Source: Thermodesulfobacteriota bacterium
GTDB lineage: Bacteria; Desulfobacterota; WTBG01; JAGOGO01
DNA: 64,000 bases
Reading direction: 5' to 3'
Assembly: GCA_026625185.1 (NCBI GenBank)
Contig: CP113000.1
Coordinates: 1,623,161-1,687,160 of the forward strand
A model generated the notes under the pieces. That model saw nothing but the letters and a program-made list of their open reading frames with translations. It was not told the origin of the DNA and did no database searches. How positions within the stretch are numbered: the stretch's first letter is position 1; each line of letters begins with the position of its first letter. A program made the position numbers and the translations under genes. Positions 40,151 through 55,737 of this stretch are shown here, piece after piece.

Positions 40151-40345
40151 ATGGCAAAAACGGTGGTTATCGATACGCCCGAATGCACGGCATGCGGAAC
40201 CTGTGTGGAGATATGTCCGGAAGTTTTTGCACTTGAGGATGGAGCTGAGGCTGCGACCGTAATCCAACCCACCGGCGGGCCGGAAGACTCTATCCAGGAG
40301 GCGATTGGTAGCTGCCCTACCTCGTGTATTCACTGGCAGGATTAG
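40151..40345 (+). CDS. fdx: Small monocluster ferredoxin
   Basis: The 64-aa ORF has the pattern CTACGTCVEICP...CP.SCI, like single-cluster [4Fe-4S]/[3Fe-4S] ferredoxins. Confidence 0.75.
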   Translation: MAKTVVIDTPECTACGTCVEICPEVFALEDGAEAATVIQPTGGPEDSIQEAIGSCPTSCIHWQD

Positions 40346-40533
40346 TTCCCGGACTGTCTTTTTTTCTTAATAATCTTACCTTCAATCTTGGGCGTGTGCT
40401 GGTTGTGTTTTTGTCTATCCTTATTACCGGCCAGGTTACCGGTGACGGAGAATCAAATTGGCTCAAAGGAGTGCAGCTCCTTGCGGTCTATGTGATTTTA
40501 GGTATTGTTTTCTTTTTTAGTGTCGGAGAATGA
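40324..40533 (+). pseudogene. C-terminal remnant of a Ca2+:H+ (CAX/ChaA-family) antiporter
   Basis: The last 45 aa (ITGQVTGDGESNWLKGVQLLAVYVILGIVFFF) match the conserved CAX C-terminal helix. The N-terminal roughly 280 aa are absent, and the fragment overlaps the fdx 3' end. Confidence 0.5.
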
Positions 40534-40577
40534 TTAAAACAAACAATGAGGAAACCCATTTATTTTGGTTATGACTC

Positions 40578-41261
40578 ATGAAATGGGCAGATAATTTTTT
40601 CGGATACTTCCGAAGAATCCGTTTTATTTTTCTCTTTTTCTTCCTGCTGCTTTGCATCGGCATAATGCCTCTTTTGACCGAGTGGGGGTTCGGCTATGTA
40701 TCAGAAATTTTACAGGTGATTCTTGCCCTCACCCTCATCGCCTCCTTGATCACCATTGTTAGGGAGCGTCTCTTGTCTGGTTTATTTGTCATTGTATTTG
40801 TGATGGCGGTTCTTAAGTTGTTGTATCTTTTGCTTCATTTCAATGTTTTCCTGCCTACGAGTCAAGGGCTCCAGGTATTTTTTTGTTTGATAGCGGTCGT
40901 CCTGATTTTACGGTTTATCATGCAGGTGAAAACGGTCGATAACGATGTTGTTTTTGCTGCGTTAAGCGTTTATCTTTTATTCGGTCTCATTTTTGGTTTC
41001 ATTTATTTCATGGTAGAAGGACTGTCGCCCGGTTCTCTTGTCCACAACGTGACAAGCGCTTCTCTTGAAGGAGGTATCCGCTTAAGTCAAGCCGTTTATT
41101 TCAGTTTCGTTACCCTCGCGACATTAGGGTATGGTGATATAATACCAGCGAACGACATAATAAGGTCCCTGGCAATCATACAAACAATGTGCGGTCAGGT
41201 TTATCTGGTGGTATTGGTTGCCCGTCTGGTAACCCTTTATGGAGGGTCTTATAAACGATAA
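40578..41261 (+). CDS. Potassium channel (two-TM pore domain, TLGYGD selectivity filter)
   Basis: The TLATLGYGDIIP filter motif is flanked by TM helices and preceded by additional N-terminal TMs. Confidence 0.7.
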   Translation: MKWADNFFGYFRRIRFIFLFFFLLLCIGIMPLLTEWGFGYVSEILQVILALTLIASLITIVRERLLSGLFVIVFVMAVLKLLYLLLHFNVFLPTSQGLQVFFCLIAVVLILRFIMQVKTVDNDVVFAALSVYLLFGLIFGFIYFMVEGLSPGSLVHNVTSASLEGGIRLSQAVYFSFVTLATLGYGDIIPANDIIRSLAIIQTMCGQVYLVVLVARLVTLYGGSYKR

Positions 41262-41337
41262 AAAAATAAAGAGACCTTTTAAGAATCGCTCGTAATGAGT
41301 GATTAGGATAATCACCTATAGTTTTGAGGTTAACAAA

Positions 41338-42552
41338 ATGAAATCATTTCCCGTCACGCGTTCTTCTTTTTTGTTTGTATTCCTAATTATTTTTTATTTG
41401 GTGGGTTCTTTTTTTGCCGGCTGCAAAAAAAGCCCTCAGACCGGGTCTCCACCGCCAGACGTTGAAGTCGTTTCGGTTCAGCAAAAGGATGTTCCTATTT
41501 ATACTGAGTGGGTTGGCACAATGGATGGATTGGTGAATGCCACCATCCGGGCCCAGGTTTCGGGTTATCTCATCAAACAGAACTACCAGGAAGGCGAATT
41601 GGTCAGAAAAGGGCAGGTGCTCTTTGAAATCGATCCGCGATCGTTCCAGGCGGCGTTGGCGCAGGCTCAAGGGGAACTCGCCCGGCAGGAGGCAGCTCAT
41701 GAGAATGCGAGCCTCACTTTAGCGAGAGTAAAACCCCTTGCGGAGCAGAATGCGCTGAGCAAAAGAGACCTTGACAACGCAACGAGCACCGAACTGGCGA
41801 CTCAGGCATCAGTTTTCGCTGCCAAGGCAGCAGTGCAAAAGGCGGAGTTGGATCTTGAATTCACGCGGATCACCTCCCCTATTGACGGCATCGCGGGGAT
41901 TGCCAAAGCCCAGCTTGGCAACCTAGTGGGACCGGGAGCAAGCGAGGAATTGACCACCGTTTCCACCGTTGATCCTATCAAGGTTTACATTCAGTTGAGC
42001 GAACAACAGTATTTGAAAAGCAGACAAGCACTGGAGGCGCGCGAGGCGCAAGCCCGAGAGGTTCCTCTTCAACTAATTCTTGCGGACGGGAGTGTATACC
42101 CTCACCAGGGGCAATTCTCCCTGGCAGACCGTCAGGTGGATGTGACCACGGGAACGCTTAAGGTCGCCACCCTCTTCCCTAATCCGGGGAATCTCCTCCG
42201 TCCAGGCCAGTTTGGTCGGGTCTGCGCACAATTGGAAGTTAAGAAAGGTGCGCTGCTCGTGCCCCAGCGGGCTGTAACGGAAATGCAAGGAAAATATCTA
42301 GTCGCGGTCATAGAGAAGGACAATAAGGTCGATGTCAGGCCGGTGCAGGTCGCGGAGAAAATAAGTTCGGACGTCATAATTTCCCAGGGGCTGAAATTCG
42401 GCGAGAAAGTTGTGGCTGAGGGAATACAGAAGGTAAAATCGGGACAAATGGTTATTCCCAAGCCTTTCGCTCCCGAGAAACCGACTGTCGCTTCGGGAGA
42501 TTCCGGTAGGACGGAGGCGAAACCTTCCCCGGCTCCAATGAAAAAGAGGTAA
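41338..42552 (+). CDS. RND efflux periplasmic adaptor (membrane fusion protein), copy 1
   Basis: The protein has lipobox AGC, the HlyD/biotin-lipoyl-like hairpin (VLFEIDPRSFQAALAQAQGELA) and a beta-barrel C-terminus. Confidence 0.8.
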   Translation: MKSFPVTRSSFLFVFLIIFYLVGSFFAGCKKSPQTGSPPPDVEVVSVQQKDVPIYTEWVGTMDGLVNATIRAQVSGYLIKQNYQEGELVRKGQVLFEIDPRSFQAALAQAQGELARQEAAHENASLTLARVKPLAEQNALSKRDLDNATSTELATQASVFAAKAAVQKAELDLEFTRITSPIDGIAGIAKAQLGNLVGPGASEELTTVSTVDPIKVYIQLSEQQYLKSRQALEAREAQAREVPLQLILADGSVYPHQGQFSLADRQVDVTTGTLKVATLFPNPGNLLRPGQFGRVCAQLEVKKGALLVPQRAVTEMQGKYLVAVIEKDNKVDVRPVQVAEKISSDVIISQGLKFGEKVVAEGIQKVKSGQMVIPKPFAPEKPTVASGDSGRTEAKPSPAPMKKR

Positions 42553-42558
42553 GGCACT

Positions 42559-45500
42559 ATGTCGAAGTTCTTCATCAACAGACCAATCGTGGCCATGGTC
42601 ATTTCCATACTGATGGTCATCGTCGGCCTCGTCGCTGCTACGGGGCTCCCCATCGCTCAGTTCCCGAACATTGTTCCTCCGGCGATCCAAGTAAACGCTA
42701 CTTACACCGGGGCTGACGCCCTTACTGTTGAGCAGTCGGTTGCCACGCCCATCGAGCAGCAGATGTCCGGGGTCGACAACCTGGACTACATGTACTCCAT
42801 CAACACCAACAACGGGATGATGACCCTTTACAACTACTTCAACCTGAAAACCGAGGCCAACACCGACCAGATTCTCTCCCAGATGCGGCAGAATCAGGCA
42901 CAGTCGCAGCTTCCCAAGGATGTCGTTGATTATGGGGTGACGGTGCAGAAATCCACCTCGTCGCCCCTCATCATGTTCGCCCTTTACTCCCCCAACGGGA
43001 CCTACGATGCCGTCTTCCTCGCAAACTATTCCTACATCAACATCAACGACCAGATGACCCGGATCAAGGGGATCGCCAGCGTCACGGTATACGGTGTCGG
43101 CCAATACGCCATGCGGCTCTGGGTCAAGCCGGACCAGCTCGCCAAGTTAAACATCACTATTCCGGAGATCATGAACGCGGTCAAGGCCCAGAATACCGTC
43201 AACCCATCAGGCATGGTGGGCGCCGAGCCGGTACCGAAAGGCCAGGAGTTTACCTACTCCGTTCGGTCCCAGGGAAGACTCCAGACCGAGGAGCAGTTCG
43301 GTGACATCGTGCTCCGTGCTAATCCCGACGGCTCCATTGTCAGGGTCAGGGACGTGGCGCGCATCGCGCTGGGGTCCCAGACTTACAACGTGCAAAGTCG
43401 CTTCAACGGCAAGCCGTGCGCCCTCATCGCCCTCTTCCAGATGCCTGGAACCAACGCTCTGGATGCCGCCAACGGCACCAAAAAGCTGATGGAGGAGCTG
43501 AAGAAGAGCTTCCCGCCCGATCTAGACTATGAGGTAACGCTGGATACCACTTTGGCAGTTACTGAAGGAATGCAGGAGATGAAAAAGACCTTTTTCGAGG
43601 CTCTCTTCCTCGTTGTTCTGGTCGTCTTCGTCTTCCTCCAGGGGTGGCGGGCGACCCTTATTCCGCTCCTGGCAGTACCGGTCTCGTTGGTGGGGACCTT
43701 TGCGGTCTTTCCCCTCCTCGGCTTTTCGATCAATACGCTGTCCCTCTTCGGCCTTATCCTCGCTATTGGCCTGGTAGTGGACGATGCCATCGTCGTGGTT
43801 GAGGCCGTGGAGCACCACATTGAGCACGGCCTCTCGCCCAAGGATGCGGCACTCAAGGCCATGGAGGAGGTCTCAGGCCCGGTCATCGCCATTGCCATTA
43901 TTCTCGCGGCGGTCTTTGTCCCGACCGCCTTCATCCCCGGCATCACCGGCCAGCTTTACCAGCAGTTCGCGGTGACCATCGCTGTCTCGGTAATCCTCTC
44001 CGCTTTCAACGCCCTCTCCCTCTCCCCGGCGCTCTGCGCGCTGCTGCTGAAGCCCAAGAAGAAGGGTGCCGGTCCGCTCCAGAAGTTCTACGACTGGTTC
44101 AACCGGGTCTTCGGCCGGGCCACCGACGGCTACGTGGGAATCTGCGGCGTCGCCGTTCGGAAGAGTTTAATTAGCTTCCTCTTATTAGGGGGGGTCACGG
44201 TCCTGGCTGGGGTATCGGGCAAAGCCATCCCCACCAGCTTCCTCCCGGACGAGGACCAAGGGTTCATCTTTGCCGGCGTGCAGCTGCCCGACGCCGCCTC
44301 GCTCCAGCGGACCCGCGAGGTAGCCCGGCAGGCCGAAGAAATCATCATGAAGACCCCGGGCGTCAATTACTGCTCCTCGATTATCGGTTACAACATGCTC
44401 AGCCAGGTGCAGAACACTTATAGCGCTTTCTTCTTCATTTCCCTTGAGGAATGGTCCACTCGGAAGGAGCCGGAAGCGCAGTATGAGGCAATCAAGGCGT
44501 CGATCTCGAAGAGGATGGCCGGCATTCCCGGTGCCATCGGTTTCGCCTTCCCGCCGCCAGCAATCATGGGGGTTGGCACCTCGGGTGGGGTCACTTTTAT
44601 CCTTCAGGACCGGGCCGGCAAGGACATCGGTTTTCTTGCCGAGAACACGCAAAAGTTCATCGAAGAGGCCAAAAAACGACCCGAGCTGGCGCGCGTCACC
44701 ACCACCTTCCTCCCCACCGTGCCACAACTCTATGTGGATGTAGATCGGGACAAGGTGCTCAAGCAGGGGGTCAACATCTCAGATATGTATAAAGTCCTGC
44801 AATGCTTCATGGGGAGTGGCTTCATCAACTACTTTAACCGGTTCGGCCGCCAGTGGCAGGTATTCCTACAGGCCGAGGGGGACTACCGGACCAACATTGA
44901 AAACATAGGCCAGTTCTACGTGCGCAACAGCGACGGGAAATCGGTTCCGCTCTCGGCACTCACCTCGGTTCGCAACATCACCGGGCCGGAATTTACCATG
45001 CGCTACAATCTCTACCGTTCAGCCCAGATCAATGCCTCGGCGTCCCCGGGGTATAGTTCGGCACAGGCCATGCAGGCGCTCGAGGAGGTCTTCGCCCAGA
45101 CCATGCCGCGCGAAATGGGGTACGACTATAGCGGCATGTCATTCCAGGAGAAGAAAGCCCAACAGGGGGTCTCGCCGGCGGTGATCTTCGCCTTCTCGTT
45201 TCTCTGTGTCTTCTTGATCCTGGCGGCCCAGTACGAGAGCTGGTCGCTGCCGTTCTCGGTACTTCTCGGAACACCCATTGCAGTGGCCGGGGCTTTCGGC
45301 GGACTTTTAATGCGACACTTTGAAAATAACGTCTATGCCCAGATCGGTCTGGTCATGCTGATCGGCCTGGCGGCCAAGAACGCAATCCTGATCGTCGAGT
45401 TTGCCAAGATGGAGTATGAGAAGGGCAAGCCGCTGGTCGAAGCGACCCTTGAGGGGGCGCGGCTCCGGCTTCGGCCCATCCTGATGACCTCCTTCGCCTT

Positions 45501-45711
45501 TATCCTCGGCTGTGTGCCGCTGGCTATCGCCAGTGGGGCCGGTGCGATATCGCGCCAGGTCATGGGCACGGCGGTCATCGGCGGCATGCTGGCGGCCTCC
45601 TTCATCGCCATCTTCCTCATACCGGTTACCTTTTATGTCGTGGAAAAAATCTCCCATCGAGGCACTCATTCGGATTCTTCAATGAACAAGGAGGATAAAC
45701 CTCATGGGTAA
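42559..45711 (+). CDS. RND multidrug efflux permease (HAE1/AcrB family), copy 1
   Basis: The 1050-aa ORF has 12 TMs and two large periplasmic loops. The N-terminus MSKFFINRPIVAMVISILMVIVG is AcrB-like. Confidence 0.85.
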   Translation: MSKFFINRPIVAMVISILMVIVGLVAATGLPIAQFPNIVPPAIQVNATYTGADALTVEQSVATPIEQQMSGVDNLDYMYSINTNNGMMTLYNYFNLKTEANTDQILSQMRQNQAQSQLPKDVVDYGVTVQKSTSSPLIMFALYSPNGTYDAVFLANYSYININDQMTRIKGIASVTVYGVGQYAMRLWVKPDQLAKLNITIPEIMNAVKAQNTVNPSGMVGAEPVPKGQEFTYSVRSQGRLQTEEQFGDIVLRANPDGSIVRVRDVARIALGSQTYNVQSRFNGKPCALIALFQMPGTNALDAANGTKKLMEELKKSFPPDLDYEVTLDTTLAVTEGMQEMKKTFFEALFLVVLVVFVFLQGWRATLIPLLAVPVSLVGTFAVFPLLGFSINTLSLFGLILAIGLVVDDAIVVVEAVEHHIEHGLSPKDAALKAMEEVSGPVIAIAIILAAVFVPTAFIPGITGQLYQQFAVTIAVSVILSAFNALSLSPALCALLLKPKKKGAGPLQKFYDWFNRVFGRATDGYVGICGVAVRKSLISFLLLGGVTVLAGVSGKAIPTSFLPDEDQGFIFAGVQLPDAASLQRTREVARQAEEIIMKTPGVNYCSSIIGYNMLSQVQNTYSAFFFISLEEWSTRKEPEAQYEAIKASISKRMAGIPGAIGFAFPPPAIMGVGTSGGVTFILQDRAGKDIGFLAENTQKFIEEAKKRPELARVTTTFLPTVPQLYVDVDRDKVLKQGVNISDMYKVLQCFMGSGFINYFNRFGRQWQVFLQAEGDYRTNIENIGQFYVRNSDGKSVPLSALTSVRNITGPEFTMRYNLYRSAQINASASPGYSSAQAMQALEEVFAQTMPREMGYDYSGMSFQEKKAQQGVSPAVIFAFSFLCVFLILAAQYESWSLPFSVLLGTPIAVAGAFGGLLMRHFENNVYAQIGLVMLIGLAAKNAILIVEFAKMEYEKGKPLVEATLEGARLRLRPILMTSFAFILGCVPLAIASGAGAISRQVMGTAVIGGMLAASFIAIFLIPVTFYVVEKISHRGTHSDSSMNKEDKPHG

Positions 45712-47206
45712 GCTTATTAATGAACAGATCTCCTTCACAATTGCACTTCTTATGTTTTTTATGGTCGCTTGTGCTATTGGTCCTGATTACCAAAGGCCGA
45801 AGGTAGATATTTCGCAAGCCTGGCGTTTTGAGGAAAAAGAAGCTTTGGATGTTGCCAATACTGCCTGGTGGGAGCAGTTCAATGACCCGGTTTTAAATGA
45901 ATTGATTCAGATTGCCCTCAAAGAAAATAAAGACCTGATGGTTGCTTCAGCACGGATCGAGGAGTTTATCGGCCGCTACCGCACCACCCGCTCCTATTTG
46001 TTTCCCAAAATTAACGCCCAAGCAGTGGGGGGAAGATCCCGTGCAACCGAGGAAGGGCCTTCTCCGTTGTCACCGAGCATTGAAAATCCTTCTGACTTTT
46101 TTCAAGGGTTTTTCTTTGGAAGTTGGGAAATTGACCTCTGGGGAAAGCTGCGGCGGGCCAAGGAAGCAGCCCGGGCTGATTTGCTGGGCACCGAAGAAGG
46201 TCGGCGAGGAGTGATTTTAACTCTGGTGGCCGCGGTGGCCAATGGCTATATTAACCTGCGAGACTTAGACCGGGAGCTGGAGATTTCCAAGCGCACTGCC
46301 ACGACCCGTGACGGAACCTATAAGATGTTTAAGCTTCGTTTCGAAGCCGGTGTCATTTCTGAGCTTGAGCTCAGCCAGGTAAAATCAGAATACGAGGCGG
46401 CCCTGGCCGCCATCCCGCAGTTTGAAAAGGCCATTGCCCAGCAGGAGAATGCCTTAAGCATTTTACTCGGCCGTAATCCTGGGGTTATTACCCGGGGAAA
46501 GATGATTGATGAGTTAGCTCTGCCTGTAGTTCCCCAAGGGGTTCCTTCCGATGTGCTCGACCGGCGGCCGGATATTCGGCAGGCGGAACAAGATCTCATT
46601 GCTGCCAATGCACGAATTGGTGTTGCTAAGGCAGCGTATTTCCCCAGCATCTCCCTGACGGGAGATTATGGTTATGCCAGTACGGAACTTTCAAATTTGT
46701 TTGATGGTCCGGCGAAGGCCTGGAGCTGGACTGCGCCCATTGTTGCTCCCATCTTTACTGCCGGACAAATTTCCGGCGAAGTAAAGGCAGCAAATGCTAT
46801 GCAGCAACAGGCTCTTTTTCGTTACCAGCAGGTGATACAAAATGCTTTTCGCGAAGTGGATGATTCGCTCATTGACCAAAACAAAACAAGGGAGCAACTT
46901 GGTGCTCAAGGAAGGCAAGTAGAGGCTTTGCGCCAATATGCTCGATTAGCGCGGCTGCGTTTTGATGAAGGGTATACTAGCTATATTGAGGTGCTTGATG
47001 CGGAGCGGAGCCTTTTTGATGTTGAGCTTTCCTATACTCAAACCCAGGCTACCGTGTTTCAGGCGCTCGTAAATCTTTACAAGTCAATGGGTGGTGGTTG
47101 GGTGAACGAGGCAGATAAGCTGACGATTGACATGTCTGGTACAGGGAAGCCGGCTCAGGAAACTCTTTGGGAGCGGATGAAAGGGGCACTGCAACTCATA
47201 AATTAA
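45704..47206 (+). CDS. Outer-membrane efflux lipoprotein (NodT/OprM family), copy 1
   Basis: The protein has a lipobox (MVAC) followed by IGPDYQRP, and tandem TolC-like repeats. Its start overlaps the RND stop. Confidence 0.8.
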   Translation: MGKLINEQISFTIALLMFFMVACAIGPDYQRPKVDISQAWRFEEKEALDVANTAWWEQFNDPVLNELIQIALKENKDLMVASARIEEFIGRYRTTRSYLFPKINAQAVGGRSRATEEGPSPLSPSIENPSDFFQGFFFGSWEIDLWGKLRRAKEAARADLLGTEEGRRGVILTLVAAVANGYINLRDLDRELEISKRTATTRDGTYKMFKLRFEAGVISELELSQVKSEYEAALAAIPQFEKAIAQQENALSILLGRNPGVITRGKMIDELALPVVPQGVPSDVLDRRPDIRQAEQDLIAANARIGVAKAAYFPSISLTGDYGYASTELSNLFDGPAKAWSWTAPIVAPIFTAGQISGEVKAANAMQQQALFRYQQVIQNAFREVDDSLIDQNKTREQLGAQGRQVEALRQYARLARLRFDEGYTSYIEVLDAERSLFDVELSYTQTQATVFQALVNLYKSMGGGWVNEADKLTIDMSGTGKPAQETLWERMKGALQLIN

Positions 47207-47224
47207 ACCGTCTCTGTTTCTTTT

Positions 47225-47343
47225 TTAGGTATTACCCGTAGCTTCATATACCAAGTCTAAAGTGCGCTGAACGCCCAGGGTTGATGCTACTTCACAACCC
47301 GGCGCCCTACCTTGATATGCCAGCCTTCTTCTCTCGATTCAAT
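47225..47343 (-). repeat. Duplicated 3'-end fragment of trmB (last ~39 codons), copy of 53799-53917
   Basis: The sequence is near-identical at nucleotide level to the 3' end of the intact trmB at 53799. It encodes ...HIKVAPGCEVASTLGVQRTLDLVYEATGNT*. Confidence 0.6.
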
Positions 47344-47651
47344 GTCGTTTTGTCTTTCCGCCTTAACACCCCTTCCTGTCTGCTGTCATTTGTGATCATG
47401 GCAGTCACTTTCGATCTTATTGAGTGAATATCTCCCGGAAAATCAGTATCCCTCACAGGACGAAAACCCGACATTTATTTTTATTTTATTTTTTAAATAA
47501 ATATGAAATAATAGCCGAAAAAAAAGGACACGATTATCCCAATGATATGACTATCATTTTCGGTAAGGGGAGGTTATTAAGGCTTCACGGGTTTTTTGTT
47601 TTCAAAAGGTGCAGATTATAGCCCAAAACCAAATTTTTTCCGAGGGGTAAT

Positions 47652-47722
47652 GATAAAAAATTGTGTGGCAGGTTTATCTGGTGGTGTTGGTTGCCCGTCT
47701 GGTAACACTTTTTAGAGGGTCT
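47652..47722 (+). repeat. Duplicated 3'-end fragment of the K+ channel gene (copy of ~41193-41263)
   Basis: CAGGTTTATCTGGTGGTGTTGGTTGCCCGTCTGGTAAC is repeated with few changes. It marks the left boundary of the second copy of the RND operon. Confidence 0.6.
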
Positions 47723-47813
47723 CCGAAATGATAAAAAAAGCAGAGGAACTGTTTGAGAAACCCTTTTAAAAAAAATTTGTTTGAATAACCACCCCTACTT
47801 TGAGGTTAACACC

Positions 47814-49037
47814 ATGAAATCATTTTCCATCCTGCGATCTTCTTTTTTGTTCGTCTTTTTAATTAGTTATTGTTTGGTGTTTTTCCTTTTTCCCGGCTGC
47901 AAAAAAGCAGACGTATCCCAGGCACGGCCGCCTGCACAGGTGTCGGTTATTAAGATCGAACTCAAAGACATGCCGGTGAGCCTCGAGTTCGTAGGCCAGA
48001 CCCAGAGCTCGCACCAAGTGGAGATCCGGGCGCGGGTAAACGGTTTTCTTGACGAACGAACGTACGTTGAAGGAACCCTTGTCCATGACGGCGATGTTAT
48101 GTTCAGGATGGACCCGAAACCTTACCAGGCGCAACTGCAGGCGGCACAGGGCGAGCTCGCCCAACAGCAGGCGCGACTGACCACGGCCCGGGCAAACCTC
48201 GCGAGGGTCAAACCGCTCGTTGAGCAGGACGCTTTGTCGCAAAAGGATCTCGATGACGCTACGGGCCAGGAACAGACTGCCGCAGCAGCCGTGGAATCGG
48301 CCAAGGCCAACGTAGAGGAAACCAAGCTCAATCTGGGGTACACAACGATAATCACACCGGTGACCGGACTTTCGAGCTATGCCCGCGTGCAGGACGGCGC
48401 TTACGTCAACCAGTCGAACAGTCTTCTTACCTATGTCTCTCAGATTGATCCGATATGGGTTACCTTCAGTCTGTCGGAGAACGATGTTCTCAAATCTCGC
48501 AGTGAGGCGGAACGTGGCCAGCTTGTGTTGCCGAAGGAAGATGCCTATGAAGTGGAGGTCGAGCTTGGGGATGGTTCGATATTTCCCGAGAGAGGTCGCA
48601 TTACCTTCGCAGACGCGGAATATAACCAGCAAACAGGCACGTTCCTGCTTCGGGCCACCCTTCCGAATCCCAAAGGCCATTTGCGGCCTGGGCAGTTTGT
48701 CCGCGTGCACATCCTGGGCGTCATACGGCCGAAAGCGATCCTCGTCCCTCTACGTGCCGTACAGCAGGGGGACAAAGGCCACTTCATCTGGGTGGTGAAT
48801 AAAGAGGGCAAGGCTGAGCAAAGGCCGGTAGTAGTGGGCGATTGGATGGGAAATAACTGGTTCATCAACGAGGGACTCATTGCCGGCGACCAGGTGGTCG
48901 TTGATGGTGGCCTCACCTTGCGGCCCGGCGATCCGGTTACGGTTAAGTCCCAGATGTCCACCGTGGAATCTGCCCCCGGCAGCGCTGTTCTGAAAGCAGA
49001 CGCTGGGAAAACCGAACCTACCATGAGCCAAAAATAA
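47814..49037 (+). CDS. RND efflux periplasmic adaptor, copy 2
   Basis: The signal peptide and the sequence upstream of the ATG are almost identical at nucleotide level to copy 1. The protein body is only moderately similar. Confidence 0.8.
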   Translation: MKSFSILRSSFLFVFLISYCLVFFLFPGCKKADVSQARPPAQVSVIKIELKDMPVSLEFVGQTQSSHQVEIRARVNGFLDERTYVEGTLVHDGDVMFRMDPKPYQAQLQAAQGELAQQQARLTTARANLARVKPLVEQDALSQKDLDDATGQEQTAAAAVESAKANVEETKLNLGYTTIITPVTGLSSYARVQDGAYVNQSNSLLTYVSQIDPIWVTFSLSENDVLKSRSEAERGQLVLPKEDAYEVEVELGDGSIFPERGRITFADAEYNQQTGTFLLRATLPNPKGHLRPGQFVRVHILGVIRPKAILVPLRAVQQGDKGHFIWVVNKEGKAEQRPVVVGDWMGNNWFINEGLIAGDQVVVDGGLTLRPGDPVTVKSQMSTVESAPGSAVLKADAGKTEPTMSQK

Positions 49038-49052
49038 GGGAGGGACCGGGTA

Positions 49053-52000
49053 ATGACGTTTTCCAAATTCTTCATCGAGCGGCCGATTTTCGCTACGGTC
49101 GTTTCTTGTATCATCGTGATTGCCGGACTGGTGGCAATGAAAGCCCTACCGGTGGCCATGTATCCAACGATCACGCCGGTCACGGTCCAGGTGACGACAA
49201 CCTATCCCGGGGCTGACTCGAAGACGGTCGGCGATTCAGTGGCGGCACCTATTGAAGCCCAGATCAACGGCGTCGACAACATGCTTTACATGACATCAAC
49301 CAGTTCCAACACAGGACAGATGACGATAACGGTCTACTTTACGCTGGACACGGATCCTGACATCGCTCAGGTACTGGTGCAGAACCGCGTCAACCTCGCC
49401 ATGCCGCAACTTCCTGAAGCCGTCACCCAGTACGGGGTCTCGGTGCAGAAAAAATCATCTTCTCCCTTGATGGTCATTTCGGTTTTCAACCGGGACGGTC
49501 GGTACAGCCCGGAATATGTGACCAACTATGCCAATGTCTATGTTCTGGATGCAATCAAGCGGGTGAACGGCGCCGGGCAGGCTCAGATTTTAGGTATGCC
49601 GGACCAGGCCATGCGTATCTGGATGAATCCGGACCGGATGGCCTCCATGTCAATCACGACGACCGATATCCAGAATGCTATCTCCAGGCAGAATGCGTTG
49701 TTCGGGGCGGGTCAGGTGGGTCAGCAGCCGGGTGACAAGGACGTGCAGTTGACGTTCCCCGTTGTGACTCAGGCCCCGTTTATGAAGCCTTCAGAATATG
49801 AAGACATCATTCTCCGCGCTAACCCGGACGGAAGCGCCATCGTGCGTGTCAAAGATGTTGCCCGCGCTGAAGTCGGCCGCAGACAGTATATTGATGACAA
49901 TAAGCTGAATGGAGCGCCGGCAACTCCGATCATGGTCTACCAGCAGCCCGGGGCAAACGGGCTTGAGGTTTCCAAACAGGTTCGCAAGGTGATGGAAGAC
50001 CTGAAGGCGACGATGCCCGAAGGCATTGAGTACGTCATAGCGCTTGATAATACCGATTTCGTGCGCATCTCCATCAAAGAGGTAATCCATACCCTTTTTG
50101 AAGCGGTACTGCTGGTGATTCTGGTCGTTTACTTCTTCCTGCAGAGTTTTCGTTCCACTTTCATCTGCATAGTCGCTATTTTGGTTTCGTTGATCGGCAC
50201 TTTCGCCGGTATGCTCGCGCTCGGTTTTTCCATCAATCTTCTGACGCTTTTCGGCCTCGTGCTGGCTATCGGGATGGTGGTGGATGATGCGATTGTCGTG
50301 GTGGAAAACGTGGAGCGAATCATGACCAAGGAGCACATTTCCGTTAAACAGGCCACGATCATGGCCATGGAGCAGATAAGCACCGCGCTTATCGCTGTTG
50401 TTCTCGTAATGGCTTCGGTCTTTATCCCCGCTGCGTTTCTTCCCGGAACCACCGGGCAACTTTATAAGCAGTTCGCCATAACCATCATTATTTCTGTAAC
50501 CATCTCCGGATTTGTGGCTCTCACCCTGAGCCCCGCGATGTGCGGCCTCCTGCTGAAGCCCAGCACGCCCTCGCAGCGCGGTATCATGGGAGCGGTCAAC
50601 CGTTTTTTTGCCTGGTTCAACCGGGGATTCCACCGCTTTACGCTCGGCTTCGGGGATGCGGTGGTACTCATGATCAAACGGACGACTATCGCTTTTATAC
50701 TCCTTGTCTTTTTCATTTATGCGCTGGCGCACCTGTTCCGCACAACCCCGACCGCCTTTGTGCCCAACGAAGACCAGGGGTATGTGATGGGGCAGCTTAT
50801 CATGCCCGACTCTGCCAGTGTGAACCGCACGGTTCAGACCTCCAGCCATATAGAGGGGTTGTTCGCGAAAAGTCCCGCAGTCGAATACCGAACGGTTATC
50901 AACGGCTACAGCTTAATCGACGCCCAGTTCAAGTCCAATGTGGCAACTTTCTTCATTAAGTTCAAAGACTTCGAGGAGCGTTATTCTTCCCTGGCCCGTG
51001 CCCGCACTGAAAACGCCCGCGCCGTCCTGAGAGGGGTAGCCGACGGCGCGCGGGCAATTGAAACCGGCCGCTTCATCCCGATACCGCCGCCGGCCATTCC
51101 GGGGATCGGCACCACGGGCGGTTTTGAGTTCTGGATCCAGGACAAGGGGGCAGGAGATCCGGCGCGTCTGAACGAGATCACCCAGCAGTTTCTGGCTAAG
51201 GCTCGCACACGACCAGAGCTTGCCGGCCTGAACACCACGTTCCGATCCGCATCCCAACAGTTGCGGGCTGAAGTCGACCGATCCAAGGCAGTGCTCCTCA
51301 GAGTGCCGATATCCGATGTGTATAGCGCCCTGCAGGGTCAGTTCGGTTCGATTGCGGTGAGCCAGTTTAATCAGTACAGCCGCGTCTGGAATGTTATCCT
51401 TCAGTCCGATGCCCCCTACCGTCGGACTCCTAACGACATCACCAAGCTTTACACAAGATCAAATGACGGCAATATGGTCCCGCTTTCGGCTCTGGTGACT
51501 ACCAGGTACGTTACCGGCCCCGACCTGGTGCCGCATTTCAACGGATTCCCTGCTGCCCAGATCACCGGTGACGCTGCGCCCGGCTATAGTTCAGGTACGA
51601 CAATTAAGGCAATGGAGGAAGTCGCCAAGGAGGTGCTTCCCGCAGGATATGGTTTCTCCTGGTCAGGCATGGCTTTTGAGGAAAAGCAATCGGGCGGGAC
51701 CTCAGCCAACGCCTTTATCTTCGGGATCATCATCGTCTTCTTGGTGCTTGCAGCCCAGTTTGAGTCATGGATCCTACCCGGCGCTGTGTTGACAGCGGTG
51801 CCGTTCGGCATCCTTGGCGCCCTGGTCTTTAACTGGCTCCGCGGCCTCAACAATGATGTTTATTTCCAGATCGGGCTTTTGGTGCTGATTGGCCTCGGCG
51901 CCAAGAACGCAGTTTTGAGGGTTGCCTTTGCCGTGGATCTGCGCAAGCAGGGTCTGTCGGTCATGGACGCCACAATCCAGGCTGGCGAGGAGCGGCTGCG

Positions 52001-52295
52001 GCCGATCGTTATGACCTCGCTCGCGTTCATCTTCGGCGTGCTTCCGCTAGCCATTGCCACGGGTGCCGGCGCTAATGCTCGTCACTCTATCGGCACTGGT
52101 ATCATGGGTGGCATGATTGGTGAGACCACCCTGGCCATGCTCTATGTGCCGCTTTTCTTTTATCTCTTCGATACTCTCTCCGAACGGTCGGCAAAAAAAA
52201 AGGAAGCGAAGTCTTCATTCGAACCGTCGCCCGGGGCTACACCTGTCGGCAGCACCCAAGAGGGGCCAGTCCCCGACATAGAGGGGGGTAACTAA
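49053..52295 (+). CDS. RND multidrug efflux permease (HAE1 family), copy 2
   Basis: The 1080-aa ORF is an AcrB-like paralog of the 42559 gene. Confidence 0.85.
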   Translation: MTFSKFFIERPIFATVVSCIIVIAGLVAMKALPVAMYPTITPVTVQVTTTYPGADSKTVGDSVAAPIEAQINGVDNMLYMTSTSSNTGQMTITVYFTLDTDPDIAQVLVQNRVNLAMPQLPEAVTQYGVSVQKKSSSPLMVISVFNRDGRYSPEYVTNYANVYVLDAIKRVNGAGQAQILGMPDQAMRIWMNPDRMASMSITTTDIQNAISRQNALFGAGQVGQQPGDKDVQLTFPVVTQAPFMKPSEYEDIILRANPDGSAIVRVKDVARAEVGRRQYIDDNKLNGAPATPIMVYQQPGANGLEVSKQVRKVMEDLKATMPEGIEYVIALDNTDFVRISIKEVIHTLFEAVLLVILVVYFFLQSFRSTFICIVAILVSLIGTFAGMLALGFSINLLTLFGLVLAIGMVVDDAIVVVENVERIMTKEHISVKQATIMAMEQISTALIAVVLVMASVFIPAAFLPGTTGQLYKQFAITIIISVTISGFVALTLSPAMCGLLLKPSTPSQRGIMGAVNRFFAWFNRGFHRFTLGFGDAVVLMIKRTTIAFILLVFFIYALAHLFRTTPTAFVPNEDQGYVMGQLIMPDSASVNRTVQTSSHIEGLFAKSPAVEYRTVINGYSLIDAQFKSNVATFFIKFKDFEERYSSLARARTENARAVLRGVADGARAIETGRFIPIPPPAIPGIGTTGGFEFWIQDKGAGDPARLNEITQQFLAKARTRPELAGLNTTFRSASQQLRAEVDRSKAVLLRVPISDVYSALQGQFGSIAVSQFNQYSRVWNVILQSDAPYRRTPNDITKLYTRSNDGNMVPLSALVTTRYVTGPDLVPHFNGFPAAQITGDAAPGYSSGTTIKAMEEVAKEVLPAGYGFSWSGMAFEEKQSGGTSANAFIFGIIIVFLVLAAQFESWILPGAVLTAVPFGILGALVFNWLRGLNNDVYFQIGLLVLIGLGAKNAVLRVAFAVDLRKQGLSVMDATIQAGEERLRPIVMTSLAFIFGVLPLAIATGAGANARHSIGTGIMGGMIGETTLAMLYVPLFFYLFDTLSERSAKKKEAKSSFEPSPGATPVGSTQEGPVPDIEGGN

Positions 52296-52296
52296 C

Positions 52297-53724
52297 ATGC
52301 GTCGAACGCTGATCGTTTCTCTATTGGTCGCCGTCTATTTTGCAGGTTGCATGCTCGGCCCCGACTATAAACGTCCCGGGGTCACGACTCCGCAGTCTTT
52401 TGAGTACCAGCCTCAGGAGGTGGCTGAGACTGCCAATACCGAATGGTGGAAACAGTTCGATGACCCGGTGCTTGACCAGTTCATCGCCGAGGCTCTGGCC
52501 AACAACAAAAGTGTGAAGATCGCGGCTGCCAATGTGGAGCAGGCAGCGGGTCTATTGATGACCACCCGCGCAGATCTTTTTCCGCAGGTGAATTACAGCG
52601 CCTCAACTACTCGTGAACGTTCCTCCGAAAACAACATTACCCCCGCACCCCTTAAAAATCCATTTAACAGCCGACAAATTCTGGGAGGCGTTACCTGGGA
52701 GATCGACCTCTGGGGTCGGATACGGCGGCTCACTGAGGCGGCACAGGCCGAGCTTTTCGCGAGCGACGAGGCGCGGCGCGGGGTTATTCTTTCCCTGGTT
52801 GCCGAAGTTGCGACTTCGTATATCCAGCTATGCGCCTTTGATGAGCAACTTGCGATTTCACAACGCACGCTCAAGACCTACGAAGATTCTCTGAGACTCT
52901 TCGAACTGCAGCACAGGTATGGCCAGGTTTCAAAGATGACGGTTGAACAGTCACGCTCGCAGTATGAAACTGCGGCAGCGACCATTCCGCAGATCGAAAG
53001 TCAGGTCGTGCAAACCGAAAATGCCCTCTCCATCCTTCTCGGGCGTAACCCGGGGACCATCACGCGAGGGCGCAAGCTGGCAGAACTCGCCATGCCCCCG
53101 GTCCCCGCGGGCTTGCCGTCGCAACTGCTCGAACGACGTCCCGACATCCTTCAGGCTGAACAGAATTTAATCGCGGCGAATGCGCAGATAGGCGCTGCTA
53201 AAGCGCTCTACTTTCCCACTATCTCGCTGACCGGTGCATTCGGAAGGTCCAGCAGTGAGCTGTCTGACATCTTCAAGGGGGCTAGCAAGACCTGGAGCTA
53301 TAGCGGATCGATTATCGGACCAATCTTTACCGCGGGCGCTATCAGGGGTCAGGTAAAGCAAGCGGAAGCAGCCCAGAAGGCAGCGCTCTCGGCGTACGAG
53401 CAGACCATTCAGAACTCTTTTGCCGACACCGAGAATGCGCTCGTCTCCCGAGAGAAACTGGAAGAGCAGCTTACCGCTGAACAGAAGCGGGTAGGGGCTT
53501 ACCAGGAATACAGCCGCCTTGCGTGGCTCAAATACAACGGAGGTTATACGGACTATCTCGACGTGCTCTATGCTGAAACGCAGCTTTTTCCGGCAGAGCT
53601 GAGCCTTGCACAGACGCAGGCAGCGACGTTAACCAGCCTCGTGAACATTTACAAGGCCATGGGAGGCGGTTGGGTGAACGAAGCAGATAAGCTGACGATT
53701 GACATGGCGGGTGGAGGGAAGTAG
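52297..53724 (+). CDS. Outer-membrane efflux lipoprotein (NodT family), copy 2
   Basis: The protein has lipobox FAGC and GPDYKRP. The C-terminal GGGWVNEADKLTIDM is shared with copy 1. Confidence 0.8.
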   Translation: MRRTLIVSLLVAVYFAGCMLGPDYKRPGVTTPQSFEYQPQEVAETANTEWWKQFDDPVLDQFIAEALANNKSVKIAAANVEQAAGLLMTTRADLFPQVNYSASTTRERSSENNITPAPLKNPFNSRQILGGVTWEIDLWGRIRRLTEAAQAELFASDEARRGVILSLVAEVATSYIQLCAFDEQLAISQRTLKTYEDSLRLFELQHRYGQVSKMTVEQSRSQYETAAATIPQIESQVVQTENALSILLGRNPGTITRGRKLAELAMPPVPAGLPSQLLERRPDILQAEQNLIAANAQIGAAKALYFPTISLTGAFGRSSSELSDIFKGASKTWSYSGSIIGPIFTAGAIRGQVKQAEAAQKAALSAYEQTIQNSFADTENALVSREKLEEQLTAEQKRVGAYQEYSRLAWLKYNGGYTDYLDVLYAETQLFPAELSLAQTQAATLTSLVNIYKAMGGGWVNEADKLTIDMAGGGK

Positions 53725-53798
53725 GGTTAGGAAACTTTTTGAGAGCGGGTAAAAAAGGAGTACTACAACTCATACATTAAACCGTCTCGGTTTCACTT

Positions 53799-54857
53799 TT
53801 AAATGTCACCCGCGGCTTCATAGACCAAATCTAAAGCGCGCTGCACCCCCACGGTTGATGCTACTTCACAACCAGGCGCTACTTTGATATGCCAGCTTTC
53901 TTCTCGTGATTCAATGGCGATCCAAAAATCCTGAGTAAAAAGATCTTCCACGACAATAACGCGAACCATTCCCCTTTGACGGTTGTGGTCAAAAAGAAAG
54001 TCTTGGAATTTGACTACTATCTCACCTCGTTCGTCCTTCGGGGAAAATTTTTCCGGATCAAAATGGTTAAGGGAATAGGTTCTCAAGGCCGCCTCCTTTT
54101 TTTCTGATATTTCCCGGTGTTCGAGTTTTACTAAATTTATTTCAAAAAATTTATTTTGTCCTTTTTCTTGCCATTTGCGCTCATACTTGGTATTGAATTG
54201 TGGGCAAGAAATTTTTGTCTCCACCGTAAAACCTGTTCCGGGTAATTGTTCGAGAACCCAATTAAAATAAGGTTCACAGTCGGTAACAATGTGCACCGCT
54301 CGCTTGTCCATTAAGCGATTATTAAGCAGGTTTAAAAAATTATGTGAAAAAAGACGATTACGTTCATGATGCCGTTTGGGCCACGGCATGGGAAAAAGCG
54401 AGCATACGTAGTCTACCGATTGGGGCCTGAAAAGTCGATCAAAGGCCACCCGACTGTCTATTTGCAGGAGCCGAACATTGCTCAATCCTGCGTGCGCAAT
54501 CTGGCGCAAACCTCTTCGTATGGAACCCCACTTAAGTTCCATTCCCACGAAGTTTTTTTCTGGGGAAGAGAGCGCCTGCCGCGTCAAGAACTCCCCATTG
54601 CCAAACCCGATTTCAACCTCCAACAATGCTTTTCGCCCAAAAATGTTTGCCCACTCCAGCGGGTGTTCTTTTGTTTGCCACAGAAGGTAAGGTCGGAGAG
54701 AAAGATAACGCTTTTTCATCTTTAAAAATATTTTGTTGACATTCGCTATTATATCGGTGATTTCATAGCAAAAGGGTTGCAAGGCTGAAATAAATAAGGA
54801 TTGTGGAGATATCCGTGATTGCCAAAGTGACCGGTCCGGCTGCGATTTTGGGATCAA
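53799..54857 (-). CDS. trmB: tRNA (guanine-N7)-methyltransferase TrmB with ~120-aa C-terminal extension
   Basis: The SAM motif LEVEIGFGNGEF and the TrmB core are present. The annotated start overlaps the mgtE 3' end by 95 nt. An internal Met (MKKRYLS, 54719) would remove the overlap. Confidence 0.65.
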   Translation of the reverse strand: MIPKSQPDRSLWQSRISPQSLFISALQPFCYEITDIIANVNKIFLKMKKRYLSLRPYLLWQTKEHPLEWANIFGRKALLEVEIGFGNGEFLTRQALSSPEKNFVGMELKWGSIRRGLRQIAHAGLSNVRLLQIDSRVAFDRLFRPQSVDYVCSLFPMPWPKRHHERNRLFSHNFLNLLNNRLMDKRAVHIVTDCEPYFNWVLEQLPGTGFTVETKISCPQFNTKYERKWQEKGQNKFFEINLVKLEHREISEKKEAALRTYSLNHFDPEKFSPKDERGEIVVKFQDFLFDHNRQRGMVRVIVVEDLFTQDFWIAIESREESWHIKVAPGCEVASTVGVQRALDLVYEAAGDI

Positions 54858-55737
54858 GTTTCATTTTGTGCAAAAGCGTCGGAACACTCAGCCCCAAAAT
54901 GCTTCCGGCGCAAATCGTCAGGAGAATGCTGCTTCCAATTGATACTGCTGCCATTCCAGCCCCGTACCAGAGCCACACAATCAGACCCACCGTGAAGCCG
55001 CAGGCTGCCCCAAGCAGGAGCGCCGTCACGATTTCGCGCCAAAATTCCCTTATATACCATCGCAGAGTCGGACGTCTCGCACGCAAGGCATGAATCGCCA
55101 CTGTCATTGACTGAGTGCCGACACTATCGCCCAGCCCCAACATCAGTGTCAGGAAAAACGCCAGCACAAGAGCTTTAGCCAGCGTTAATTCGTAGGCGCT
55201 GGTGAGCAAAGCACAAATCGTTCCACTTGTGAGGGTGGCCATCAGCCACGGAAGCCGAAAATGGACCGCACGGACCGGCGAGGCCTCCTGTACCTGTTTG
55301 ACGCGAAGGCCGATGTTTTCAAAAAGCTCCTCCATCTGCTCCCGTTCGGACAGGTCGAAGACCTCGTCTGAAAACATGCTGACATCAACCACGCCTACGA
55401 TATGCCTTTGCTGGTCAACAACCGGAAACGCTAAAAGCCTGTGAATAGAAAAGAACTCGCATGCCTCTAATACCGTCGCCGTCTGCGGAATCGTTGCCAC
55501 ACGTCTAATCATTACCTCAGAGAGGCGCTGTTCCAAAGGTGCGATGAGTAAACGCCGAGTCGGTACTACACCCACTAAAACATCCTCGTCGTTCACCACA
55601 TAGAAATAGACAATTCTTTCGCCCAGTCCATGTGAGCGAATGTCATCCAAGGCCTTGTTAACAGTAGAATTCTCATGCAACGTTGCCGCGTCCTTGCGCG
55701 CCACGGTCATAATTGACTGATTCATATGGTTTATCAT
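54763..55737 (-). CDS. mgtE: MgtE-family Mg2+ transporter (CBS pair + MgtE TM domain, no MgtE_N domain)
   Basis: Tandem CBS domains are followed by five TM helices that include the MgtE motif (LGLGDSVGTQS). Confidence 0.7.
   Translation of the reverse strand: MINHMNQSIMTVARKDAATLHENSTVNKALDDIRSHGLGERIVYFYVVNDEDVLVGVVPTRRLLIAPLEQRLSEVMIRRVATIPQTATVLEACEFFSIHRLLAFPVVDQQRHIVGVVDVSMFSDEVFDLSEREQMEELFENIGLRVKQVQEASPVRAVHFRLPWLMATLTSGTICALLTSAYELTLAKALVLAFFLTLMLGLGDSVGTQSMTVAIHALRARRPTLRWYIREFWREIVTALLLGAACGFTVGLIVWLWYGAGMAAVSIGSSILLTICAGSILGLSVPTLLHKMKLDPKIAAGPVTLAITDISTILIYFSLATLLL

Follow-up and report, generated by a model that had tools for sequence, protein, structure and literature searches.

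Tandem RND efflux operons with shared edges and diverged interiors at a variable locus of a Thermodesulfobacteriota genome

Two complete tandem MFP-RND-OMF operons (41338-47206 and 47814-53724) lie in the window, the 64,000-nt stretch of a Thermodesulfobacteriota bacterium genome analysed here, between an intact K+ channel gene (K_a) and an intact trmB (Table 1). The gene content given in the initial annotation, that is, a K+ channel, two sets of MFP, RND and OMF genes, and trmB, is borne out by Pfam and TIGR family matches. Relatives were collected by exact-protein look-ups of homologues and comprise a few lineages, represented by short contigs from metagenomes (L numbers). K_a is equal in length to its orthologues in L102 and L104 (81-82% aa identity), and OMF2 stops 18 codons earlier than both OMF1 and the L095 OMF2 in a comparison of C-termini. 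No tRNA genes were found in the whole window by a tRNA scan, used as a test for an integrase-type island.

Each operon encodes a full-length permease of the AcrB/AcrD/AcrF family, with PF00873 spanning 1-1028 of RND1 and 3-1040 of RND2 (the NF000282 cut-off is 1250 bits), and includes a cognate adaptor and outer-membrane factor, with genes that abut or overlap. The proton-relay residues, TM4 Asp-Asp and TM10 Lys, are present in both permeases (VVDDAIVVVE and GL(A/G)AKNA(I/V)L in a pairwise alignment), their positions being assigned via the motif and not a structure. Purifying selection acts on both pumps (dN/dS ~0.03-0.26); RND2 shares 90% aa identity with its L095 orthologue at a dN/dS of ~0.09, and OMF1 shares 89% with the L102 OMF. 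Given purifying selection, full-length family matches and conserved DD/K motifs, both operons are probably functional and complete HAE1-type tripartite RND efflux systems. Equivalog-level matches to named pumps were found for neither operon, all scores at that level falling far under the cut-offs. The pumps themselves are ordinary: like HAE1 systems of the AcrAB-TolC/MexAB-OprM type, they comprise a lipoprotein adaptor, a 12-TM RND permease and a NodT-family OMF in the order MFP-RND-OMF. Unlike that type, the operons in the window have no adjacent TetR-type or two-component regulator, and a K+ channel gene lies 76 nt upstream.

Table 1 Genes, shared edges and junction features of the tandem locus
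Feature	Position	Strand	Basis or description
K_a, intact K+ channel gene (227 aa, Ion_trans_2)	40578-41261	+	Pfam PF07885; upstream flank of operon 1
5' edge, copy 1	41171-41432	+	Last ~90 nt of K+ channel gene, leader, MFP1 signal peptide to lipobox GCKK
MFP1, periplasmic adaptor lipoprotein (operon 1)	41338-42552	+	TIGR01730, 251-252 bits
RND1, HAE1-type RND permease (operon 1)	42559-45711	+	PF00873 full length; NF000282, 1274 bits
OMF1, NodT-family outer-membrane lipoprotein (operon 1), 500 aa	45704-47206	+	TIGR01845, 387 bits
3' edge, copy 1	47066-47347	+	OMF C-terminal motif LVNLYKSMGGGW and tail, spacer, trmB 3' fragment
t', trmB pseudogene fragment	47225-47347	-	Last ~39 codons including the stop codon; frame-shifted by a 2-nt insertion
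Illegitimate junction	47340-47350	.	trmB (~120 nt before stop) joined to K+ channel upstream region; three-way comparison of window, trmB and L095 spacer
K_b upstream (promoter-side) region	47348-47639	+	Now directly 5' of operon 2; homology to L095 upstream spacer
Delta-K_b, internally deleted K+ channel pseudogene	47640-47734	+	First ~7 codons joined to last ~24
5' edge, copy 2	47646-47908	+	K+ channel 3' end, leader, MFP2 signal peptide
MFP2, adaptor lipoprotein (operon 2)	47814-49037	+	TIGR01730, 267 bits
RND2, HAE1-type RND permease (operon 2), 1080 aa	49053-52295	+	NF000282, 1270 bits
OMF2, NodT-family outer-membrane lipoprotein (operon 2), 475 aa	52297-53724	+	TIGR01845, 405 bits
3' edge, copy 2	53638-53919	+	OMF2 C-terminus, spacer, 3' end of intact trmB
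Intact trmB (306 aa)	53799-54719	-	TIGR00091 and PF02390; orthologues 68-85%; downstream flank

The two operons are similar at their edges and diverged between them, as the initial annotation had noticed. The 5' edges (41171-41430 and 47646-47906) share 76.5% nt identity (E 1e-47) and the 3' edges (47066-47347 and 53638-53919) 82.7% (E 4e-79). In a sliding-window global alignment of the copies, the edges range from 76 to 88% and the interior is at ~50%, with no interior 280-nt window above 66%; overall, edge identity is 79.7% versus 51.7% for the interior (chi2 157, p 4e-36). This profile, which the initial annotation had proposed as a check, is not uniform, and a simple recent duplication is not indicated. 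The best two-breakpoint partition falls at 41432, immediately past the lipobox of MFP, and at 47065, where the YKxMGGGW motif of the OMF C-terminus lies, and in a multi-genome alignment type-specific MFP sequence begins directly after TGCAAAAAA. The 5' edge copy 1 contains a leader of 76 nt with an RBS, and the 3' edge copy 1 an intergenic spacer of 18 nt (47207-47224). Between copies 1 and 2, protein identity is 42% for MFP, 43% for RND and 51% for OMF; by these divergences, the interiors are ancient paralogues (42-51%), and the frame that they share, made up of the 5' and 3' edges, is much younger.

Fragments of both flanking genes are retained between the operons, as the initial annotation had stated, and realignment alters their extent and nature. 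The trmB 3' fragment of copy 1, described as 119 nt at 47225-47343, is present and reaches 47347 with a 2-nt insertion. Its identity to the 3' end of the window's own trmB is 84%; with the L101 fragment, and with the 3' ends of trmB in L093 and L095, it reaches 90-91%. Bootstrap support for the position of the fragment among trmB 3' ends is weak (26-79%), and Tajima's relative-rate test, applied to 121 nt of it, was not significant (p 0.09-1.0). The fragment joins the K+ channel upstream spacer at a microhomology common to trmB and that spacer (CAAT(G/T)TCG, 7/8 nt), and the junction is identical in L101. The sequence that follows, 47348-47639, does not represent unique filler: it shows homology to what precedes the intact K+ channel gene in L095 (L095 3569-3883 versus window 47340-47660, 72% identity) and is 91-97% identical to L101. 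The K+ channel remnant of copy 2 had been read as a bare 3' fragment at 47652-47722. The remnant is there, but an L095-like upstream region followed by the first ~7 and last ~24 codons identifies it as a K+ channel gene with an internal deletion, preceded by an upstream region of its own. The start codon is mutated from ATG to CCG at 47640, the deletion join lies at ~47661/47662 (the last ~24 codons being 47662-47734), and L101 has the same deletion. We infer that the K_b upstream region is a putative promoter of operon 2. Neither leader yielded a promoter or terminator consensus above shuffle expectation, and an Rfam scan of 40000-55000 at E <= 1 gave no match.

Relatives fill the slot between the K+ channel gene and trmB in different ways. 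L095-L100 and L109 carry the Mla operon, an intact K+ channel gene and operon 2 only, and the L095 and L096 contigs run on past operon 2 into trmB and PreP. L102 carries a hydrogenase cluster, a Na/Ca exchanger, the K+ channel gene, operon 1 only and an intact trmB, and L093 and L094 have an operon-1-type OMF adjoining an intact trmB. In L090 and L087, trmB adjoins the Mla operon without a pump. L101 (~84% identity to the window) has the same tandem and is colinear across the junction. Five slot states are therefore represented, namely no pump, operon 1, operon 2, both operons, and operon 1 adjoining trmB, as expected of a variable locus. Both donor-like (L102, L093: operon 1 and intact trmB) and recipient-like (L095, L109: intact K+ channel gene and operon 2) arrangements exist. 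L095 lacks the 17.4-kb segment 29929-47340 of the window, to which K_a, operon 1 and t' belong, and the L095 spacer resumes at window 47340; the contigs of operon-1-only relatives end short of the region upstream of the AFOR/hydrogenase cluster. Searches based on trmB were less productive: the genome-contig collection gave two distant TrmB matches only (29-36%), and a search of metagenome contigs with a TrmB alignment and generic peptide patterns gave <=53% identity at best among the matches listed.

Each interior also has its own orthologues. MFP2 orthologues share 80-94% identity and MFP1 orthologues 73-90% (for example, P0242 82% and P0244 76%), and all close orthologues of both interior types carry the signal peptide MKxF..RxSFLF..GCKK. 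Orthologues of either type at <=75% have unrelated signal peptides and lie in unrelated contexts (L106, L107). The edges include an RBS, a signal peptide, a lipobox and an OMF C-terminal motif, all of which are expected to be functional, and the tail motif GGGWV.EAD is widely conserved among OMFs, so the similarity might reflect constraint on promoter or operator, leader, export signal and terminator without shared ancestry of the frame. This is hardly credible, because the similarity is at the nucleotide level, synonymous positions included, and runs through non-functional trmB and K+ channel pseudogene fragments and intergenic spacer, whereas the signal peptides of distant orthologues are unrelated for both pump types, and the scans described above returned neither a promoter consensus nor an Rfam element. 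The distribution of GGGWV.EAD, which is not type-specific, also led us to drop the idea, drawn from OMF C-terminal tails, that type 2 was the original owner of the 3' edge.

That metagenome assembly merged two strains with different cassettes at one locus into a chimera has a negligible probability. The window does come from a metagenome-assembled genome, and relatives with each cassette exist, but three assemblies from different metagenome samples, one of them a 1.6-Mb contig, are 100% identical over 40578-49500, and L101 has the same junction at ~84% identity. Moreover, the K_b internal deletion and the trmB fragment at the junction could not be created by a collapse of two alleles.

To explain the mosaic, the initial annotation had offered either an old duplication with later homogenisation of the edges or replacement of the interior by a diverged homologue. 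In the first, a tandem operon duplication would have diverged in place while repeated gene conversion kept the edges similar, which would account for edges far more similar than interiors and for a K+ channel 3' remnant with a within-genome identity (87.9%, 66 nt) slightly above that to orthologues. Gene conversion would also leave within-genome similarity above that between orthologues, but the window's edge copies 1 and 2 (W1 and W2) are 76-79% identical at the 5' edge and 83.6% at the 3' edge, whereas W1 is 92-94% identical to the orthologous edges of L104 and 92.5% identical to those of L101 copy 1, and L101's own two edge copies are 72% alike. In 5' edge bootstraps, W1 groups with L101 copy 1 (98%) and with L104 (100%), and W2 with L101 copy 2 (91%), while W1 and W2 group in <=10%. 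Homogenisation is rejected since within-genome edge copies never group in these trees. In addition, the distant orthologues of each interior lie outside the frame, which argues that the interiors did not diverge within it, and single-cassette relatives with intact flanks exist. We consider this explanation very improbable. The second is supported in substance, as each interior has its own orthologues and the distant ones lack the shared edges. Tandem paralogues with similar ends should not be assigned to gene conversion by default; here, relatives reversed that reading.

Synonymous divergence is patchy along the locus. Values of 0.12-0.3 in operon-1 and hydrogenase blocks stand against 0.5-0.9 in trmB, PreP and operon 2, the backbone being sampled by few genes (trmB, PreP and parts of the Mla operon only). 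Specifically, dS is 0.55-0.86 for trmB, 0.80-0.89 for PreP and 0.45-0.76 for operon 2. Among the low values, dS is 0.14 for RND1 between the window and L104, 0.24 for OMF1 between the window and L102, 0.13 for the 3' end of OMF1 between the window and L101, and 0.12-0.26 for the hydrogenase genes upstream of operon 1 between the window and L102; for RND1, the window and L102 differ by a dS of 2.0. Sliding identity between the window and L101 is 91-98% over 46724-47600, then ~83% in operon 2 and 81% in trmB, with the drop inside the 5' edge. This patchiness indicates that exchange between lineages has probably occurred repeatedly.

The initial annotation had also described the locus as one unit duplicated in tandem. 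The frame is indeed duplicated by one illegitimate junction, but the operons are not duplicates of each other, since relatives carry each singly; rather than being mutual closest relatives with uniform divergence, the copies have interiors and edges that are closer to those of other genomes. A form of this description that allows for later replacement is an in situ tandem duplication of [K+ channel upstream spacer - K+ channel gene - operon - trmB 3' end] in a common ancestor, through an unequal or illegitimate crossover of sister chromosomes, with one interior replaced afterwards and single-cassette relatives arising by homologous deletion between repeated spacers or 3' edges. The junction at 47340-47350 does link the two ends of the unit, the trmB 3' part on the right and the K+ channel upstream spacer on the left, which is a signature of tandem duplication; the junction and the K_b deletion are common to two diverged lineages, the window and L101, and direct-repeat deletions could regenerate both single-cassette layouts. 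Against this, at least one extra event (the interior replacement) and several independent precise losses are needed, and the trmB fragment, like the 3' edge of copy 1, falls inside present-day diversity and not outside it (90-91% to L093 and L095; with L093 at 86% bootstrap). The junction block shared with L101 is 91-98% identical, versus 81-84% for operon 2 and trmB, and a neutral pseudogene region less diverged than genes under selection argues against simple co-inheritance, as does the dS contrast between operon-1 blocks and backbone. In situ duplication is on balance unlikely, though far from implausible.

Because each operon occurs by itself in relatives, in the same slot and with intact flanks, the tandem is better read as a recombinational fusion of two alternative forms of one variable locus than as one operon duplicated and then diverged, a reading to which we give a probability of roughly 0.55. 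For this fusion we infer the following direction and order of events. Near the base of the clade, one interior would have replaced the other inside the frame, with one breakpoint just past the lipobox of MFP and the other at the conserved YKxMGGGW motif of OMF, giving two alternative cassette forms. A single illegitimate join of trmB to the K+ channel upstream spacer, by the 7-of-8-nt microhomology, would then have produced the tandem. Most likely, DNA with [K+ channel gene a - operon 1 - trmB] integrated beside a resident [spacer - K+ channel gene b - operon 2 - trmB] by homology-facilitated illegitimate recombination, in which one end is homologous and the other is joined illegitimately; an illegitimate end with short microhomology, as this process predicts, is what the junction presents. 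The redundant K+ channel copy would then have decayed through internal deletion and loss of its start codon, which would have placed operon 2 directly behind the upstream region of that copy. Homologous recombination, for which edges and flanks would be available as homology arms, may later have carried parts of operon 1 and the block with the junction between lineages.

Such a fusion would be a natural example of two deeply diverged efflux systems coming to lie side by side without duplication and divergence, through recombination between alternative locus forms with breakpoints in the first and last genes, and the flanking-gene fragments would be the record left. More tentatively, the frame might be kept as a portable scaffold that supplies expression and export signals and homology arms for swapping or stacking whole RND pump interiors between lineages. 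If so, the locus would rank as an 'efflux-pump cassette locus', similar in kind to capsule loci or T6SS effector-immunity arrays, through which uncultured anaerobes could change their efflux repertoire rapidly; should swapping of pump interiors within a conserved frame prove common, efflux capacity could turn over quickly in a way missed by gene-content surveys.

Parallels exist in other variable loci. The mtr (mtrRCDE) efflux locus of Neisseria gonorrhoeae is mosaic, having been acquired from commensal Neisseria (PMC6083905). As in mosaic mtr, where interspecies homologous recombination generates mosaic blocks, the MFP1, RND1 and OMF1 blocks of the window differ sharply in nearest relative and dS. 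Neisseria alleles replace each other at ~8% or more divergence and form no tandem, whereas the two interiors here (~43-51% protein identity) share a frame and are stacked by an illegitimate junction. T6SS effector-immunity modules and Rhs C-terminal tips are displaced or stacked by homology-facilitated illegitimate recombination (PMC5361080, with its references de Vries & Wackernagel 2002 and Prudhomme et al. 2002). As in that stacking, a conserved stretch would serve as anchor while the other end is illegitimate, a new module is added beside the old, fragments or orphans of earlier genes remain, and close relatives differ in the module at the same slot. Here the stacked units are whole tripartite pump operons of 6 kb rather than toxin-immunity pairs, and a single stacking event is involved, for which the anchor side is proposed and the illegitimate end is read from sequence. 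Capsule and O-antigen loci and replacement-type flexible genomic islands hold deeply diverged alternative gene sets between conserved flanks. The clade of the window likewise has alternative diverged contents in the same slot; unlike in those loci, the conserved arms extend into coding sequence, namely the signal peptide of the first cassette gene and the OMF C-terminus of the last, and the cassettes are homologous pumps rather than unrelated biosynthetic sets.

Two tandem RND efflux operons, each with an MFP, an RND and an OMF gene (operon 1 and operon 2), are framed by two pairs of direct repeats: a 5′ pair (41171-41430 versus 47646-47906; 76.5% identity, E 1e-47) and a 3′ pair (47066-47347 versus 53638-53919; 82.7% identity, E 4e-79). 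Gene content and these repeats confirm the initial annotation of tandem operons carrying fragments of the flanking genes, including a trmB 3′ fragment in copy 1, and the arrangement is 100% identical across three assemblies, each from a different metagenome sample. Its further claim of similar edges around diverged bodies also holds in sliding windows of a global alignment. Edges are 76-88% identical and the sequence between them ~50% (pooled, 79.7% versus 51.7%; chi2 157, p 4e-36), a two-breakpoint partition fits best at 41432 and 47065, and no interior 280-nt window exceeds 66% identity. Protein identity between the operons is 42% (MFP), 43% (RND) and 51% (OMF).

Features of the tandem efflux locus (positions in the window)
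Feature	Coordinates	Strand	Remark
K+ channel gene (K_a)	40578-41261		
MFP1	41338-42552		
RND1	42559-45711		
OMF1	45704-47206		
trmB fragment	47225-47347		
MFP2	47814-49037		
RND2	49053-52295		
OMF2	52297-53724		
trmB	53799-54719	minus	convergent to operons

Both operons encode complete HAE1-type tripartite systems. RND1 and RND2 score 1274 and 1270 bits against NF000282 (cut-off 1250) and retain the TM4 DD and TM10 K motifs, both adaptors match TIGR01730 and carry lipoboxes, and both outer-membrane factors match TIGR01845; named-pump equivalog profiles matched neither operon. With dN/dS of ~0.03-0.26 against orthologues, both operons are under purifying selection. A TAG terminates OMF2 18 codons before the point where OMF1 and the OMF2 of contig L095 (493 aa) stop (window 53722-53778), and a TAA ends OMF2 of contig L101 at this position; the additional tail (..PAQETLWERMKGALQLIN) seems to be dispensable.

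Loci related to that of the host, an uncultured Thermodesulfobacteriota bacterium, were gathered from metagenomic contigs by homologue searches with TrmB, MFP2 and MFP1 and by exact-protein look-ups. Among them, five states occur at the slot that separates the Mla operon from trmB, with operon 1 alone, operon 2 alone, neither or the tandem. Without a pump, trmB adjoins Mla (L090, L087). Operon 2 alone follows Mla and an intact K+ channel gene, K_b, in one lineage (L095-L100) and in a second represented by L109, a contig that ends within MFP2; L095 additionally has orf77 and a spacer after Mla, and L095 and L096 run on into trmB and PreP. Operon 1 alone lies in L102 between an EutBC-hydrogenase cluster, a Na/Ca exchanger and K_a on one side and intact trmB on the other, and L104 and L105 show the left half of this layout. 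L093 and L094 have an operon-1-type OMF adjoining intact trmB. The tandem itself, with the identical junction and identical K_b deletion, recurs in L101, which is ~84% identical to the window.

Relative to L095, the window carries 29929-47340 as extra sequence, comprising AFOR, ThiS, EutBC, a hydrogenase-like cluster, ferredoxins, K_a, operon 1 and the trmB fragment. Its first part (29929-40353), which L095 lacks between orf77 and the K+ channel, runs from AFOR and ThiS through a fused EutB/EutC (773 aa) and an Mbh/Ech-like membrane hydrogenase to a ferredoxin cluster. Its identity to L102 is 90.5%, synonymous divergence in the hydrogenase genes (0.12-0.26) is far below that of backbone genes, and this part seems to move together with K_a and operon 1. 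In the distant relative L107 (5941-14922), the same three gene families are adjacent in another order: an AFOR gene, an operon-2-type pump and a different Ion_trans_2 K+ channel (~33% to K_a). At 40372-40533 only the 3′ part of a Na+/Ca2+ exchanger gene is left, with ~0.9 kb deleted between 40353 and 40372. L102 (8141-9196, 351 aa) and L103 carry the whole gene, and in L104 a large ORF at this position, truncated where the contig ends, is presumably its counterpart. The trmB-PreP interval is a second small variable slot. It holds a short MgtE-like gene in the window (54763-55737, minus strand; CBS pair and TM domain without the N-terminal domain, TIGR00400 positions 139-447), a KefB-like Na+/H+ exchanger-TrkA gene in L102, and nothing in L095, L090 or L087.

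An old duplication with later homogenisation of the edges, one of two origins first proposed, is contradicted by the edges themselves, which are no closer within the genome than between genomes. The two window copies (W1 and W2) share 76-79% identity at the 5′ edge and 83.6% at the 3′ edge, and the two copies in L101 are 72% alike; W1 is 92-94% identical to L104, 92.5% to L101 copy 1 and 86% to L095, an operon-2 locus. In neighbour-joining trees with bootstraps, W1 groups with L101 copy 1 (98%) and with L101 copy 1 and L093 (86%) at the 3′ edge, and W1 with L104 (100%) and W2 with L101 copy 2 (91%) at the 5′ edge; W1 and W2 group together in ≤10%. The 3′ edges track genome lineage rather than cassette type: between L095 (operon 2) and L093 (operon 1) they are 89% identical, and trmB 93%.

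The other proposed origin, replacement of the interior by a diverged homolog, is largely borne out, as each type has its own orthologues and distant ones lack the signal peptide of the frame. For MFP2 there are many orthologues at 80-94%, and for MFP1 several at 73-90%. The signal peptide MKxF..RxSFLF..GCKK is common to all of these close orthologues, whichever their type; those of either type at or below about 75% have unrelated ones, and the distant orthologues checked, one per type (L106, L107), lie in unrelated genomic context. Type-specific sequence begins directly after the lipobox codons in a six-genome alignment and is limited at the 3′ end by the LVNxYKxMGGGW motif. Because the signal peptide is common to close orthologues only and type-specific sequence starts after the lipobox, the interiors diverged long before the clade. 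The frame is specific to the clade, and a single interior swap inside it explains the common edges. The main rival reading, which we consider unlikely, is that the frame was duplicated in situ in an ancestor and then underwent interior replacement and differential loss.

The K+ channel remnant described in copy 2 is present, not as a bare 3′ fragment but as an internally deleted gene (Delta-K_b) with its own upstream region, since its first and last codons are fused behind L095-like upstream sequence. Upstream of the intact channel gene in L095, positions 3569-3883 align with window 47340-47660 at 72%, and filler is thus ruled out for the stretch between the flank fragments. In the window, the first ~7 channel codons come next, their start codon changed to CCG at 47640, and they run straight into the last ~24 codons at about 47661/47662. 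What is actually new is the junction between the trmB fragment and the channel upstream spacer at 47340-47350, with 7/8-nt microhomology between trmB (...TTCAATGTCG/ATCCAA) and spacer (...CCAATTTCG/CTTTGTC). The K_b upstream region may now drive operon 2; scans of the operon leaders and locus for promoter consensus and Rfam elements found nothing. TrmB of this clade (~306 aa) has a conserved ~70-aa C-terminal extension past Methyltransf_4 (Pfam match ending near residue 190/306), and the duplicated fragment falls inside it.

Synonymous divergence from the relatives is uneven along the window: 0.55-0.86 for trmB, 0.80-0.89 for PreP and 0.45-0.76 for operon 2 genes. Operon 1 is itself mosaic (within 41500-45600), with sharp block boundaries in sliding identity. 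RND1 diverges by 0.14 from L104 versus 2.0 from L102 (protein identity 72%), and OMF1 by 0.24 from L102 (89%) and, at its 3′ end, by 0.13 from L101; the MFP1 block 41571-41800 is ~90% identical to L102 and 56-65% to L104, the reverse of RND1. Identity to L101 is 91-98% over 46724-~47600, drops inside the 5′ edge of copy 2, and is ~83% in operon 2 and 81% in trmB. As the neutral junction is less diverged than adjacent selected genes, the junction block probably moved between lineages by recombination; a relative-rate test on the 121-nt trmB fragment was not significant. The window trmB is an outlier (80-84% nucleotide identity to L090, L093, L095, L101 and L102, which are mutually 86-93%), so the window backbone may represent the lineage that diverges most among them, although parts of the window operon 1 match theirs at 93-99%.

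Our preferred reading, at a probability of roughly 0.55, is that a single recombination-prone locus existed in two alternative cassette forms, which one illegitimate join brought together. Most likely, a related lineage would have supplied a [K_a - operon 1 - trmB′] segment that integrated next to the [spacer - K_b - operon 2 - trmB] already present, in a manner like homology-facilitated illegitimate recombination (mechanism summarised in PMC5361080); the redundant K_b would then have decayed, and blocks would have been exchanged onward since. This is no new kind of system; it is a new, well-documented example of known recombination processes on an efflux locus. Both pumps belong to the HAE1 RND family. 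The interspecific mosaic mtr locus of Neisseria (PMC6083905) is a parallel for the mosaic blocks, and displacement of T6SS effector-immunity modules and of Rhs tips (PMC5361080) is one for the stacking that leaves fragments behind.
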